Program-made: the position numbers and the translations under genes
The notes under the pieces: generated by a model
Told to the model about the DNA's origin: nothing
The model's database searches: none
The model's input: the letters and a program-made list of their open reading frames with translations, nothing else
Source of the DNA: Escherichia coli
Lineage (GTDB): Bacteria; Pseudomonadota; Gammaproteobacteria; Enterobacterales; Enterobacteriaceae
Strand: one strand, 5' to 3'
DNA: 64,000 bases
Assembly: GCF_046105845.1 (NCBI RefSeq)
Contig: NZ_CP151004.1
Part shown: positions 3,776-7,558 of the stretch, piece after piece
Layout: each line of letters opens with the position of its first letter
Numbering within the stretch: position 1 is the first letter of the stretch

Positions 3776-5125
3776 TTATTTTTCCTGAAGACCGAGTTTT
3801 TTCTCCAGATAGTGGATGTTAGTGCCACCATGCTGGAAGTTCTCGTCATTCATGATGCGGATCTGCAGATCAACGTTGGTTTTGATACCGTCGATGATCA
3901 GCTCCTGCAGCGCATTCTTCATGCGGGCAATCGCCACGTCACGGTTTTCACCGTAGCAAATCAGCTTACCGATCATTGAGTCATAGTACGGCGGTACGGT
4001 GTAGCCCGCGTAGATATGAGACTCCCAACGCACGCCAAAACCGCCTGGTGCGTGGAAACGGGTGATTTTGCCCGGGCTTGGCAGGAAGGTGTTCGGATCT
4101 TCGGCGTTGATACGGCATTCCACCGCATGGCCGCGAACGTGAACTTCTTCTTGCTTGATCGACAGCGGTTGACCGGCAGCGATACGCAGCTGTTCTTTGA
4201 TCAGGTCAACGCCGGTGATCATTTCAGTAACCGGGTGTTCTACCTGAATACGGGTGTTCATTTCGATGAAATAGAACTCGCCGTTTTCGAACAGGAACTC
4301 GAAAGTACCCGCACCGCGATAGCCGATATCAACACACGCTTTAGCGCAACGTTCACCGATGTAGCGACGCAGTTCCGGGGTAATGCCCGGTGCTGGTGCT
4401 TCTTCGACCACTTTCTGGTGGCGGCGCTGCATGGAGCAGTCACGTTCCGCCAGATAGATAGCGTTGCCCTGACCGTCAGCCAGTACCTGAATCTCGACGT
4501 GGCGAGGATTTTCCAGGTATTTCTCCATGTAAACCATATCGTTGCTGAAAGCAGCTTTCGCTTCCGCACGGGTCATGGAGATGGATTGTGCCAGTTCAGC
4601 GTCGCCGCGCACTACGCGCATACCGCGACCGCCGCCGCCGCCGGAGGCTTTGATAATCACCGGATAACCAATGCGTTTAGCAATGGCGCGGTTTTTATCC
4701 ATATCGTCACCCAGCGGGCCGTCAGAACCCGGTACGCAAGGAACGCCCGCTTTTTTCATCGCCGCGATTGCGGATACTTTGTCGCCCATCAGGCGAATGG
4801 TTTCTGCTTTCGGGCCGATGAAGATAAAGCCGGAGCGTTCAACCTGCTCGGCAAAGTTGGCGTTCTCGGAGAGGAAGCCGTAACCCGGATGGATTGCTAC
4901 TGCGCCGGTGATTTCAGCGGCGCTGATGATTGCCGGGATGTTCAGATAACTTTTTACTGACGGAGCAGGGCCGATACAGACCGTTTCATCTGCCAGTAAT
5001 ACGTGTTTTAGATCGCGATCCGCGCTGGAGTGCACAGCGACAGTCTTGATGCCCAGTTCTTTACAGGCACGAAGAATACGCAATGCAATCTCGCCGCGGT
5101 TGGCAATAACAATTTTATCCAGCAT
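3776..5125 (-). CDS. accC: biotin carboxylase subunit of acetyl-CoA carboxylase
   Basis: ORF recognised as AccC ([16 protein letters not shown]...); start set at the internal ATG at 5125, which has a GAGG Shine-Dalgarno 10 nt after the accB stop. Confidence 0.95.
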
Positions 5126-5135
5126 GTTCGCCTCG

Positions 5136-5606
5136 TTACTCGATGACGACCAGCGGCTCGTCAAATTCTACCGGTTGTCCACTTTCGACCAGAATTGCTT
5201 TCACGGTACCGGATTTGTCCGCTTCGATCTGGTTCATCATTTTCATGGCTTCAACGATGCACAGGGTATCGCCCACGTTGACTTTCTGACCCACTTCGAT
5301 GAACGCTTTTGCGTCCGGGCTTGGGGTGCGGTAGAAAGTACCAACCATCGGGGAACGTACGATGTGACCACTGATTTCCGCTGCTGCTGGCGCTTCCATG
5401 GAAGGAACGGTCGCCGGAGCGGCTGCGTTAGATTGAGCTGGCTGCTGCATCATTGGTGCAGCGTAAGCTTGTTGCATCACAGGGAAACTTGCGGCAGGAG
5501 CTGCACGGCTAATGCGTACTGACTCTTCGCCTTCAGAAATTTCCAGTTCGGAGATGCCTGATTCTTCAACCAGCTCGATCAGTTTTTTAATCTTACGAAT
5601 ATCCAT
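5136..5606 (-). CDS. accB: biotin carboxyl carrier protein
   Basis: 156-aa ORF with an Ala/Pro-rich linker and the EAMKMM biotinylation motif. Confidence 0.95.
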
Positions 5607-6583
5607 GAGTGGGTTCCGTACTCTTTGTTTAGTGTGATTGTGACAGGCGTTTCACCGCCGTCTGTAAAGCGTATGCCCCGACAGCTGTATGCATAGCGAT
5701 AAATTCCAGCAGGCCGGGACGCCGGTCTATTTTGCCCCAGAGTGTCAATGTTAGACTTGACGGACATTGTGCAGCGATCTGCTGCTATCCTCCGGCAAAA
5801 AACAAAATATACCTTCGTTGCGCCAATGTCACCTTTTCCGCAGCGCAAAAACTGCGTCAGGGAGGACGAGGTCGCACATTATAACGATTTCGTAGCAATT
5901 GGCAGCTAAATACTGGTCTTATCAGGGAAGATAATCAACAGCTAACATGTAAATAACCTTCAACACCGTGTAATTTGCAACAAGCCGCACAATTCACGAA
6001 ATTAGCGCCATCATCGACGGAACTTCTTATAACGTAAGGTGAAAAGCTGTAAAGCCAGCCCTGCGAAGATGAGGGGCTGCAATGAGATAATCTTCACAGA
6101 CCACAAATAATGTAGGGATGCCAGGATCGCGACAAGATAGACGACATTACGCAGCGGTTGCTGAGGATTACGCAATTTTCACTGTATCGTCTGGATAGAT
6201 GTGAATGCTAAAGCACGCAAAATTAACCGATTGACAATGCTCAGCATTAAATAGGTTCGAGTGATTAATTTGTAGTCAAACAAAATCAGATTATTCCCCC
6301 CATGGTACCAGAAATCAGTAACAGGTTAAGCGTAGCGTCGCCCAAGCAAAGCACCATAAACCTAACAGGCGACGGAGGCGTATCAATAATGGCTGTTTAG
6401 TGGAGTAACAGTGCGCATCAATTTGTGGTCAGTCGAAATCATGACTTTCCAGTTTGGATGATGTTGTGCAACTTCATGACCAAGATGTTCGACGAAAGCT
6501 GTCCGGCTAACCGCTTTTCCCGTTAACCGATTGAATAATGATTTCAAAATGAGTTCCCTCTCTTATTATTCCCTGCTAAATGG
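5607..6583 (-). promoter_or_regulatory. long ORF-free region upstream of accB (promoter plus long leader)
   Basis: About 1 kb with no ORF of 60 aa or more in any frame, lying between the acuI stop and the accB start. accB is known to have a long autoregulated leader. Confidence 0.4.
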
Positions 6584-7558
6584 TTAGTTAACCTTCACCA
6601 GCGTGCGACCCTGGATCTGGTTATTAATGATGGCCTCGGCAAATTTCGGTGCCTCTGCCAGAGATATCTCTTTTGCCGCCTGGGTATAGAATGATTCCGG
6701 TAAATCGGCGACCAGTCGCTGCCAGGCTTGTGCGCGGCGTGCTGGTGGCGTCATCACTGAATCCACCCCCTGTAAACGGACATTACGCAGAATAAATGGC
6801 ATGACCGTGGTTGGCAGAGTAAAACCACCCGCCAGACCACAGGCCGCCACGCAGCCGCCGTAATTCATTTGCGCCAGCACTTTTGCAAGCACTTTGTCGC
6901 CAACGGTGTCAATTGCCCCAGCCCAGACTTGTTTTTCCAGAGGACGGGATTCGGCAAACTCATCGCGAGGGAGAATACGGCTGGCACCTAAACTTTTCAG
7001 ATATTCATGGGTACTTTCGCGACCGGAAACGGCAACGACCTGATAACCCAATTTATGCAGCAGCGCCACGGCGGTACTGCCGACGCCACCACTGGCACCC
7101 GTCACGACAATCTCCCCATCCTGCGGGCGAACACCGGCATCTTCCAGCGCCATCACACACAGCATGGCGGTAAAACCGGCAGTACCGATAATCATTGCTT
7201 TACGCGCGTCCAGCCCTTGCGGCATGGCAACCAGCCAGTCACCTTTCACTCGCGCCTGCTCCGCCAGCCCACCCCAGTGGTTTTCACCAACGCCCCAGCC
7301 AGTGAGTAATACGTCCTGACCGGCATGAAAACGCGGATCTTCGCTGGTGCGTACAGTTCCGGCAAAATCGATCCCAGGAATCATCGGAAAATTACGGATG
7401 ATTTTTCCCTTACCGGTAATCGCCAGCGCATCTTTGTAGTTCAGGCTCGACCAGTGAACATCAACCGTGACATCGCCCTCCGGCAGGCAACTTTCGTCCA
7501 GAGTCTTTACCGATGCGAGAGTTTTGCCGTCCTGCTGTTCTAAAAGTAACGCCTGCAT
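6584..7558 (-). CDS. acuI: acrylyl-CoA reductase (NADPH), zinc-independent MDR family
   Basis: 324-aa ORF recognised as YhdH/AcuI, with a GASGGVGS nucleotide-binding motif. Confidence 0.9.
   Translation of the reverse strand: MQALLLEQQDGKTLASVKTLDESCLPEGDVTVDVHWSSLNYKDALAITGKGKIIRNFPMIPGIDFAGTVRTSEDPRFHAGQDVLLTGWGVGENHWGGLAEQARVKGDWLVAMPQGLDARKAMIIGTAGFTAMLCVMALEDAGVRPQDGEIVVTGASGGVGSTAVALLHKLGYQVVAVSGRESTHEYLKSLGASRILPRDEFAESRPLEKQVWAGAIDTVGDKVLAKVLAQMNYGGCVAACGLAGGFTLPTTVMPFILRNVRLQGVDSVMTPPARRAQAWQRLVADLPESFYTQAAKEISLAEAPKFAEAIINNQIQGRTLVKVN

Follow-up and report, generated by a model that had tools for sequence, protein, structure and literature searches.

The 977 bp between acuI and accB in the E. 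coli DNA analysed here (a stretch of 64,000 nucleotides, below called the window) very probably consist of decayed gene relics and one live control region, that of the accBC operon, without an independent small RNA (sRNA) or small-protein gene. The decayed remnants derive from four genes: yrdF, msrP, msrQ and aroQ. To judge from profile matches and colinearity with intact operons, the long accBC leader is likewise a gene relic, derived from aroQ, which encodes a type II dehydroquinase. This origin of the leader is mentioned neither in the annotation nor in the searchable papers. As a whole, the gap is ordinary, since it is accounted for by pseudogenes that are already annotated and by a long leader that is already known.

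The gap occupies 5607..6583, exactly as the original prediction placed it, and corresponds to K-12 3404459-3405435; of 5426 complete E. coli genomes, 5425 carry it, with 95-99% identity. Its features and both neighbouring genes are listed below in the order in which the minus strand is read.

6584..7558, minus strand: acuI (yhdH), the upstream neighbour of the gap; a 324-aa ORF annotated acuI/yhdH in homologous E. coli records.
6458..6526, plus strand: a 22-codon ORF antisense to yrdF', judged to be non-functional.
6405..6547, minus strand: yrdF' (K-12 b4697; K-12 3404495-3404637), the first 47 codons of yrdF with a TTG start.
6002..6404, minus strand: yrdE' (K-12 b4646 = 6011..6404), a relic of msrQ/yedZ, nt 199-600.
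5940..6001, minus strand: a spacer with weak conservation that separates the ancestral msrQ stop from the accBC control region.
5870..5939, minus strand: the invariant promoter block of the (aroQ)-accBC operon, assigned from consensus and conservation.
5839..5856, minus strand: a small leader hairpin CGCAG...CUGCG, seen in per-sequence folds of 68 relatives.
5796..5832, minus strand: GTGACA-17-TATTTT with a T run, invariant in alignments and picked up by the promoter scan.
5747..5767, minus strand: the 5' end of the aroQ relic, nt 1-21, with the start codon at 5767..5765.
5677..5746, minus strand: an unalignable middle of ~70 nt, compared with 384 nt in intact aroQ (net loss ~313 nt).
5629..5676, minus strand: the 3' end of the aroQ relic, nt 406-453, with the stop codon TAA at 5631..5629.
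5607..5628, minus strand: the accB translation initiation region, a 22-nt spacer from the aroQ' stop to the accB ATG.
5136..5606, minus strand: accB, the downstream neighbour of the gap; a 156-aa ORF annotated accB in homologous records.

The gap had been described as free of ORFs of 60 aa or more. This is correct for ORFs wholly within it, the longest being 55 aa, but not for one that crosses into accB: an 89-aa ORF on the minus strand starts with TTG at 5848 and extends 28 nt into accB (5848..5579), and the ATG at 5767 gives a 62-aa version of the ORF ending at 5579. Nor is the absence of long ORFs statistically unusual in itself, given that 22% of 2000 shuffles of the region also lack an ORF of at least 60 aa; a stretch of 977 bp with no live gene, however, does stand out in a compact genome. 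The long accB leader is real and, as expected, covers only part of the gap.

Most of the remainder is taken up by yrdF' and yrdE', which are already known as annotated pseudogenes of K-12. In K-12, they have the same locus, length and mapped coordinates (window position = 3411042 - K-12 position) within the same 977-bp gap, and the window copies are ~97% identical to them, with no essential difference. Our analysis adds to the K-12 annotation the parent gene of yrdF', the exact lesions, and a second allele.

The relation of yrdE' to msrQ is clear from a tblastn search with K-12 MsrQ as a query, in which residues 69-95 were matched with 89% identity and residues 101-195 with 64% identity (E 4e-39). 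At the DNA level, yrdE' is 79% identical to the msrQ of Escherichia sp. E1V33 (locus L006) and 77% identical to K-12 msrQ. It is colinear with intact msrQ in loci L006-L008 and in ~70 further loci, and window 6400..5500 aligns with L006 4203..5102 with 89% identity. A complete msrQ frame has ~199 codons; the relic lacks codons 1-66 and retains the last two thirds, with an additional C (+1) at 6318 and in-frame TGA codons at 6181..6179 (codon 141) and 6013..6011 (codon 197), ahead of the ancestral stop TAA at 6004..6002. Judged by these lesions in its sequence, yrdE' is a pseudogene and not a functional member of the MsrQ family; in other strains, PGAP annotates a 'sulfoxide reductase heme-binding subunit YedZ' pseudogene at this site. 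The msrP gene is deleted from the window, where 183 bp stand for 1304 bp of L006. The copy of msrPQ (yedYZ) located between hiuH and zinT in E. coli is intact, and its MsrQ ends in a different C-terminal tail of 15 residues, whereas the window copy is dead. The spacer that follows the ancestral msrQ stop shows a divergence of 0.10-0.11 from the three divergent Escherichia lineages.

The parent gene of yrdF' was recognized in strain Ec-U10, where window 6547..6405 corresponds to codons 1-47 of an intact 276-aa gene (a DUF1444 domain-containing protein according to PGAP). A frameshifted yrdF copy with the same 47 starting codons is present in strain FG31-1. In the window, the reading frame of yrdF' continues to a stop at 6383, forming a 54-codon ORF (6547-6383). 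The long yrdF allele is found in 670 of 5426 E. coli genomes (~12%), in which 856 bp of other sequence replaces 6304-6404, and also in E. albertii. Downstream of the long allele, a relic of msrP nt 17-105 can be detected (E 1.6e-10 to 4e-12). Since the short and the long alleles each retain a piece of msrPQ that is absent from the other, neither is derived from the other; the presence of both alleles in E. coli and of one in E. albertii requires either a long-lived polymorphism or recombination. Homologues of the YrdF protein were found only in Escherichia and on a few mobile-element contigs. The intact protein has no Pfam match at E 1e-3 and weakly resembles NCBIfam PRK13668 (20.5 bits with a cut-off of 221, E 2.8e-4). 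A blastn search of plasmids and phages for an outside source of the 183-bp block 6401-6583, which contains yrdF', returned E. coli chromosomal sequence only.

Two other origins of yrdF' were considered and rejected. As for an N-terminal fragment of msrP, tblastn with MsrP gave no match, and DNA alignments with the acuI-msrP region were at the level of shuffled sequences. The idea of a serine-recombinase fragment came from a protein (P0016) encoded on an 817-bp metagenome scaffold, which joins a recombinase N-terminus to the yrdF' tail; the scaffold shares with a gut-phage recombinase gene an identical stretch of 19-21 nt and no homology beyond it, and the fusion was judged to be a chimeric assembly. 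It can also be noted that the YrdF start LKSLFNRL and the K-12 MsrQ tail LRSLFNRL agree in 7 of 8 residues; the DNA similarity (~64% over 36 nt) is not significant.

Both remnants evolve as non-functional DNA. Conservation analysis, suggested earlier as a way of revealing a hidden gene, gave a neutral rate for 6002-6583 (0.030-0.046, compared with 0.043-0.046 at acuI third codon positions). Within E. coli, divergence is neutral both for the 183-bp block (0.033-0.038 per site) and for yrdE'. Published 3'-end (Term-seq) data indicate Rho-dependent termination within yrdF', in a region at 6524, and no stable RNA; a weak orphan 3' end on the minus strand was recorded at 6215, within yrdE'. Thus, the small RNA or small protein that the original prediction placed in the rest of the gap is not borne out: this part consists of two neutrally diverging pseudogene remnants.

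That the gap nevertheless makes a small protein is very unlikely. Three candidate ORFs are open: the 22-codon ORF on the plus strand (which exists as predicted, except that it starts at 6458 and not at 6459), the 54-codon yrdF' ORF, and the 62-codon ORF beginning at the aroQ ATG (5767-5579). The last one is open in every Escherichia sequence examined, overlaps the accB start, stopping 28 nt into the gene, and could be a regulatory upstream ORF. However, its Shine-Dalgarno sequence is mutated from AGGAG to AGCAG, all 2-4 substitutions among Escherichia are nonsynonymous, and in Salmonella and Citrobacter the frame ends after 5 codons. The 22-codon ORF lacks a Shine-Dalgarno sequence, and a comparison of five E. 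coli strains shows variation at 3 of its 22 residues, every difference being nonsynonymous. The yrdF' ORF is truncated, neutrally evolving and located inside the Rho termination zone. Small-ORF ribosome profiling, also proposed earlier as a check, is represented here by one catalogue, the supplement of Stringer et al. 2021, which has no entry in the gap (K-12 34044xx-34054xx).

A small regulatory RNA encoded in 6010-6583, outside the accB leader, is very unlikely too. Some transcription of this segment is indicated by the orphan 3' end at 6215, and Rfam gives a weak match to the Yersinia sRNA 190 (RF02764, Ysr190), although the latter lies in the accB leader, aligning with 5903..5804, that is, with the promoter and the early leader up to the T run. 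The similarity to Ysr190 is far under the gathering threshold (25.3 vs. 66 bits, E 0.43), and its best-aligned part is conserved promoter DNA; no Rfam family reaches its gathering score, the others having E >5. Against an sRNA are also the neutral divergence of 6002-6583, its composition from a dead msrQ and a yrdF fragment, the replacement of part of it in ~12% of E. coli genomes, and the Rho-dependent end of transcription at 6524. No terminator-like site was predicted, and no ncRNA is listed at the locus in K-12 RefSeq. For a discrete sRNA transcript, Term-seq offers only weak orphan 3' ends and the Rho termination region. For sRNAs, the assessment draws on a single Term-seq study, a single catalogue of small ORFs, and Rfam. 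On this evidence, the gap is a poor candidate for sRNA or small-protein hunting.

The live part of the gap is the accBC control region. Li and Cronan reportedly described the promoter and the long leader of accBC in E. coli in 1993, and James and Cronan are said to have described autoregulation through the AccB N-terminal domain in 2004; the length of the leader we take to be roughly 300 nt. The E. coli accBC upstream region corresponds to window segment 5970-5607. According to reviews, accBC is subject to growth-rate control and to autoregulation by the AccB N-terminus. In the published yrdE-kan strain HC555, a kanamycin-resistance (KanR) cassette is located at 5971/5970, and growth is the same as in the wild type; all sequence required for accBC expression would sit downstream of ~5970.

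The promoter block is nearly identical in 23 Enterobacterales sequences, out to Erwinia, and differs from the divergent Escherichia lineages at 1 of 70 nt. The promoter scan found a perfect -10 TATAAT (5883..5878) with a weak -35 CTGCCA (5905..5900), and the block also contains an alternative pair TTGATT (5938..5933)-17-CAGTAT. The putative accBC promoter is assigned from consensus matches and conservation, and the conserved region contains three promoter-like sites. The acc operons were reported to be under FadR regulation (PMC11602165), and the CTGGTC half-site at 5913..5918 may be a FadR site. The invariant element at 5796..5832 may be another promoter-like site, or it may mark where a leader RNA equivalent to Ysr190 ends; a 3' end at the leader T run is not listed in E. 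coli Term-seq. Three E. coli strains, compared over the 395 bp that precede accB, differ at 0-1 positions. The leader hairpin usually forms a stem at the same site across the 68 relatives, with base pairs that differ between genera. RNAalifold gave no consensus structure for the 5' leader in the 68 sequences, and the predicted fold of the full 295-nt leader is no better than that of shuffled sequences (z = -1.3).

The aroQ origin of the leader is indicated by matches at both of its ends. An nhmmer search with a profile of 42 intact aroQ genes gave the 3' relic (E 5.5e-13) as the sole significant match in the 64-kb window, and 14 of 15 C-terminal residues are matched in tblastn. A second profile, covering 60 nt upstream to aroQ nt 150 and built from the 42 intact loci, matched 5825..5747 (E 2.3e-17); the 21 nt of the 5' relic are significant only jointly with the conserved upstream context. 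The former aroQ Shine-Dalgarno sequence AGGAG is now AGCAG. The divergent Escherichia lineages and Citrobacter sedlakii share the middle sequence 5677..5746, which is absent from Salmonella and most Citrobacter. Raoultella, Erwinia, Enterobacter and others have an intact aroQ (Pfam DHquinase_II, PF01220; E 1e-59) at the site between msrQ and accB. The aroQ-accB-accC operon of other Enterobacterales has the promoter block, the 5' UTR, the start position, the last 48 nt and the 22-nt spacer in common with the window; in the window, ~313 nt of aroQ are lost and the Shine-Dalgarno sequence is mutated. The full 150-codon AroQ frame with its catalytic core is absent, nt 1-21 and 406-453 being all that remains, with the two ends in different frames. 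With such a loss and such a mutation, no dehydroquinase can be made. E. coli depends on the type I enzyme AroD.

The alternative that the leader is a purpose-built regulatory RNA with a coincidental resemblance to aroQ could appeal to the mere 21 nt of the 5' relic and to the strong conservation of the whole leader, but its probability is close to negligible in view of the E-value of 5.5e-13 for the last 48 nt, placed 22 nt from the accB ATG exactly as in intact operons, of the colinearity of the promoter, 5' UTR, RBS position and ATG with aroQ loci, and of the intermediate decay states, with Kosakonia/Phytobacter keeping aroQ nt 1-90 and 295-453 and a further such state in K. grimontii. Insertion of aroQ into an older leader is disfavoured by the occurrence of intact aroQ out to Erwinia, Chimaeribacter and Prodigiosinella. 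Descent of the leader from a gutted aroQ gives a simple historical cause of its unusual length, a small evolutionary footnote.

The aroQ tail seems to have been retained for signals of accB translation or mRNA processing. More specifically, the tail (48 nt) together with the 22-nt spacer may have been co-opted as a cis-acting RNA for accB translation, mRNA processing or autoregulation; we offer this tentatively, with slightly less than an even chance of its being correct. Such a co-option would explain why the repeated losses of aroQ in Enterobacteriaceae were internal deletions, with both ends of the gene left in place every time: the last 45-65 nt of aroQ are retained in 24 of 24 aroQ-less loci, while the internal deletions differ. 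It would also explain the near-frozen synonymous sites in the last 16 codons even of intact aroQ, where the third-position identity is 0.895, compared with 0.49-0.62 across most of the gene. Finally, it would explain why a weak Term-seq 3' end (5669, within the tail) and a cut by the MazF toxin 22 nt upstream of the accB AUG (MazF-regulon table, PMC5001579) both fall in the tail/spacer segment. The 22-nt spacer is invariant in all aligned Enterobacteriaceae, and segment 5629-5689 shows 0 differences per 61 nt from the divergent Escherichia lineages. The case for constraint is weaker for the relic middle (5690-5768), because accB/accC third positions themselves differ by only 0.06-0.10 from the divergent Escherichia. 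For accBC regulation, the invariant promoter block and the last 70 nt are likely to matter, and the rest of the leader is probably filler.

The ancestral gene order was derived from a scan for MsrQ, which returned 80 loci. Nearly all of them have the order acuI-msrP-msrQ-...-accB-accC, including three divergent Escherichia lineages, whereas in K-12, in E. albertii and in one Escherichia sp., msrPQ lies between hiuH and zinT instead. The comparison shows that the ancestral enterobacterial order, on the same strand, was acuI - msrP - msrQ - aroQ - accB - accC. From it, the steps in the Escherichia lineage can be reconstructed by comparison, and the sequence in which they are given here implies no order in time. 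The aroQ gene would have lost ~313 nt from its middle but not its promoter, 5' UTR, start codon or last 48 nt, and these surviving parts would today provide the accBC operon, which is essential, with its promoter and its ~265-300-nt leader. A working copy of msrPQ would have come to sit at hiuH-zinT, and a foreign gene, yrdF, would have been inserted between acuI and msrP. In the window allele, a single deletion from yrdF codon 48 through msrQ nt 198 would have joined the 47 codons of yrdF' to yrdE', the surviving two thirds of msrQ. Today, both remnants are inert and drift neutrally, apparently transcribed only by read-through from acuI that is ended by Rho.

The locus can thus be regarded as a worked example of the removal of redundant genes by deletion: msrPQ, of which a second copy exists, and aroQ, which is backed by the type I enzyme. 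Both alleles continue to segregate within E. coli. The ancestral arrangement is kept by the three sampled divergent Escherichia lineages and not by E. coli or E. albertii, and the protein identity between K-12 MsrQ and the acuI-linked MsrQ of these divergent lineages is 91-93%.

The gap between acuI and accB spans 977 bp (5607..6583), exactly as originally predicted. Of 5426 complete E. coli genomes, 5425 have it, with 95–99% identity. Its upstream 60% is made up of two pseudogene remnants, and the rest is the accBC promoter and leader. The yrdF and yrdE remnants are already known. An aroQ relic in the leader is unannotated: it is absent from the K-12 RefSeq and PGAP annotation, and no description of it in the accB leader was found in the literature searched. 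The original prediction considered the lack of ORFs of 60 aa or more unusual. This lack holds inside the gap alone, where the longest ORF is 55 aa; one minus-strand ORF begins in the gap and ends in accB. Since 22% of shuffles of the region likewise lack such ORFs, the feature is not significant by itself. K-12 MG1655 has the same 977-bp gap, and its positions were converted as window = 3411042 − K-12 position.

Features of the acuI–accB region
7558..6584, minus: acuI, upstream flank of the gap
6547..6405, minus: yrdF (b4697) pseudogene, K-12 MG1655 annotation
6404..6011, minus: yrdE (b4646) pseudogene, K-12 MG1655 annotation
6318, 6181..6179, 6013..6011: yrdE' lesions against the L006 (Escherichia sp. 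E1V33) msrQ (extra C, TGA, TGA)
6004..6002: ancestral msrQ stop TAA, from the same comparison
5939..5870, minus: invariant 70-nt block with a perfect TATAAT (5883..5878), alignment
5856..5839, minus: variable hairpin, alignment
5848 (TTG, 89 aa) or 5767 (ATG, 62 aa), minus: ORF straddling gap and accB, stop 28 nt into accB
5832..5796, minus: GTGACA-17-TATTTT followed by a T run, invariant, alignment
Between the T run and the relic: aroQ ribosome-binding region, alignment
5676..5632, minus: aroQ C-terminal coding remnant, stop 22 nt before accB, as with intact aroQ
Final 70 nt before accB: invariant, alignment
5606..5136, minus: accB, downstream flank, followed by accC

In other strains, PGAP's entry at the position of yrdE' is a pseudogene, ‘sulfoxide reductase heme-binding subunit YedZ’. 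On the minus strand, 6398..6318 corresponds to residues 69–95 of K-12 MsrQ (89% identity) and 6301..6017 to residues 101–195 (64%; E = 4e-39); an MsrP query gave no match in the window. Compared with the intact L006 orthologue, yrdE' is 79% identical and lacks nt 1–198. Judging from these alignments, yrdE' is a dead msrQ.

An MsrQ scan of one genome per species yielded 80 loci, nearly all with the order acuI-msrP-msrQ-...-accB-accC; Citrobacter, Salmonella, Klebsiella, Enterobacter, Raoultella, Kluyvera, Leclercia, Erwinia and Chimaeribacter are among the carriers. The acuI-msrP-msrQ-accB order is also found in three divergent Escherichia lineages (Escherichia sp. E1V33, E. whittamii and strain E69), while in K-12, E. 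albertii and Escherichia sp. MOD1-EC7003 the order is hiuH-msrP-msrQ-zinT. Positions 4203..5102 of L006 are colinear with window 6400..5500 (89% identity), and its acuI end matches 6700..6584. The window thus has 183 bp where L006 has 1304 bp, made up of the acuI-msrP spacer, msrP and msrQ nt 1–202.

The 183-bp block contains yrdF', whose 54-aa ORF has homologues in E. coli only and which exists in two alleles. Some strains have 804–856 bp at the place of window 6304..6404, and the ORF runs on to a 276-aa protein, intact in strain Ec-U10 (a DUF1444 domain-containing protein in PGAP) and frameshifted in strain FG31-1. Of 5426 E. coli genomes, 670 have this long allele, and E. albertii has it at about 90% identity. 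The long allele keeps most of yrdF and, 3' of the intact gene, a relic of msrP nt 17–105 (74–75% identity, E = 1.6e-10 to 4e-12), both absent from the window; msrQ nt 199–303 are kept in the window allele and absent from the long one. Since each allele holds pieces missing in the other, neither can derive from the other, and both would come from an acuI-yrdF-msrP'-msrQ arrangement via separate deletions. Full-length YrdF has no Pfam match and only a weak NCBIfam match, and a search of plasmids and phages gave nothing for the 183-bp block. Among the few YrdF relatives outside Escherichia, one with 62% identity (3898–4731 of a 5501-bp Logan contig) adjoins genes of the KfrA and Aca2 families (KfrA_N, Aca2_YdiL and DUF7352 domains). 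This is a mobile-element context and suggests that the family is carried on plasmids or other mobile elements.

Between the msrQ stop and the accB start lie about 393–395 bp in Escherichia, Citrobacter, Salmonella and two Klebsiella species. Most other genera have about 708 bp there, the difference being an intact aroQ (Pfam DHquinase_II, E = 1e-59) that ends 22 nt short of the accB ATG. A DNA profile built from 42 intact aroQ genes has a single match in the 64-kb window, 5676..5629 (aroQ nt 406–453, E = 5.5e-13). Another profile, spanning the 60 nt before aroQ and its first 150 nt, matches 5825..5747 (E = 2.3e-17), which places the aroQ ATG at 5767..5765 with 21 nt of coding sequence left. 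About 313 nt between the two remnants are gone, and the former Shine-Dalgarno AGGAG is AGCAG. These matches identify the accB leader as a gutted aroQ.

The last 45–65 nt of aroQ are retained in all 24 loci without the intact gene, with differing internal deletions. In intact aroQ, third-position identity is 0.895 over the last 16 codons vs 0.49–0.62 over most of the gene, which points to a non-coding role of this end segment. The conserved tail may have become a required element for accB expression. Upstream of accB, aroQ decayed several independent times: in Kosakonia and Phytobacter nt 91–294 alone are missing (a common 204-bp deletion; L043, L047, L072), L048 is rearranged, and K. grimontii (L060) has a larger deletion, keeping nt 2–52; the promoter end and last 45–160 nt are kept in all five. 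Another conserved patch, codons 61–80 of intact genes (e.g., L024, ~5014–5073; third-position identity 0.84 vs ~0.5–0.6 elsewhere), is deleted in E. coli and could act as a signal for accBC, such as an internal promoter.

Divergence was calculated between the window and K-12 and AZ162 (within E. coli) and between the window and the three divergent lineages.

Divergence along the region
acuI third codon positions: 0.043–0.046 within E. coli; 0.29–0.35 against divergent lineages
183-bp block with yrdF' (6401–6583): 0.033–0.038; no homologue
yrdE' (6005–6400): 0.030–0.046; 0.20–0.23
395 bp upstream of accB (5607–6001): 0–1 differences in total within E. coli

Against the divergent lineages, there is 1 difference in the 70 nt of the promoter block, none in the 61 nt of the aroQ tail (5629–5689), none in the 22 nt of the aroQ'-accB spacer and 2–4 in the 79 nt of the middle of the relic. 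Constraint on this middle part is only moderately supported, because third positions of accB and accC are themselves low (0.06–0.10).

The control region was aligned across 23 Enterobacterales sequences, and a promoter scan also predicted both hexamer pairs. As anticipated, a long accB leader fills part of the gap: the TATAAT predicts a length of ~265 nt, and the accBC leader has been described as about 300 nt long. The Rfam Yersinia family Ysr190 aligns below threshold from 5903, 297 nt ahead of accB, as far as the T run. No consensus RNA structure emerged for the 5' leader, and folding of the whole leader was no better than that of shuffled sequences. According to reviews, accBC transcription tracks growth rate and is autoregulated by the AccB N-terminus. 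FadR may activate accBC (PMC11602165), and a candidate for its site is the CTGGTC half-site (5913..5918). Growth is like that of the wild type in a published strain carrying a KanR cassette between 5971 and 5970; hence accBC expression requires nothing upstream of 5970, and acuI read-through is unneeded.

A small RNA or small protein, raised as a possibility for the remainder of the gap, finds no place there: pseudogene remnants occupy it, an Rfam scan found no family at its gathering score, and the small-ORF catalogue of Stringer et al. (2021) has no entry in the interval. The proposed 22-codon plus-strand ORF is present, starting at 6458, one base earlier than predicted; it has no Shine-Dalgarno sequence, and 3 of its 22 residues vary among five strains. 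Every Escherichia sequence examined keeps open the 62-codon ORF that begins at the old aroQ ATG, but all its substitutions are nonsynonymous; in Salmonella and Citrobacter this frame meets a stop after five codons.

Term-seq of MG1655 places a Rho termination region just past acuI (3404518, window 6524), a weak orphan 3' end at 3404827 (6215) and a 3' end that does not depend on Rho at 3405373 (5669), 63 nt before the accB ATG. MazF cleaves accB mRNA 22 nt before the AUG (PMC5001579), at 5628, the first base past the aroQ' stop and 41 nt downstream of the last 3' end. Together, the two sites suggest a hotspot of processing at the former junction of aroQ and accB.

One metagenome protein (P0016) would make yrdF' part of a serine recombinase; this was rejected. 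Its 817-bp ENA scaffold, compared with window 6462..6135 and a gut-phage recombinase gene (L086), joins the N-terminus of a Firmicutes/gut-phage large serine recombinase to yrdF'/yrdE' via a shared 19–21 nt (ATCATCCAAACTGGAAAGT), and looks like a chimeric assembly now in protein databases.

The three divergent lineages keep an intact msrPQ between acuI and accB, with no hiuH-linked copy among the matches. Placement at acuI-accB or hiuH-zinT may be a useful marker within Escherichia; it has no obvious fit to a simple species tree. Citrobacter portucalensis (L075) and Citrobacter sp. wls619 (L084) carry a second, more divergent msrPQ pair (73–75% identity to K-12 MsrQ) adjoining neither acuI nor accB. 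In E. coli and E. albertii, the hiuH-linked MsrQ has its own 15-residue C-terminal tail (LRSLFNRLRKQV...; in K-12, L004 3048..3119), resembling the YrdF start (LKSLFNRLTGKAV...; window 6547..6524); at the DNA level, identity is ~64% over 36 nt and not significant. This likeness could reflect an old msrQ-yrdF junction from the copying of msrPQ to hiuH-zinT.
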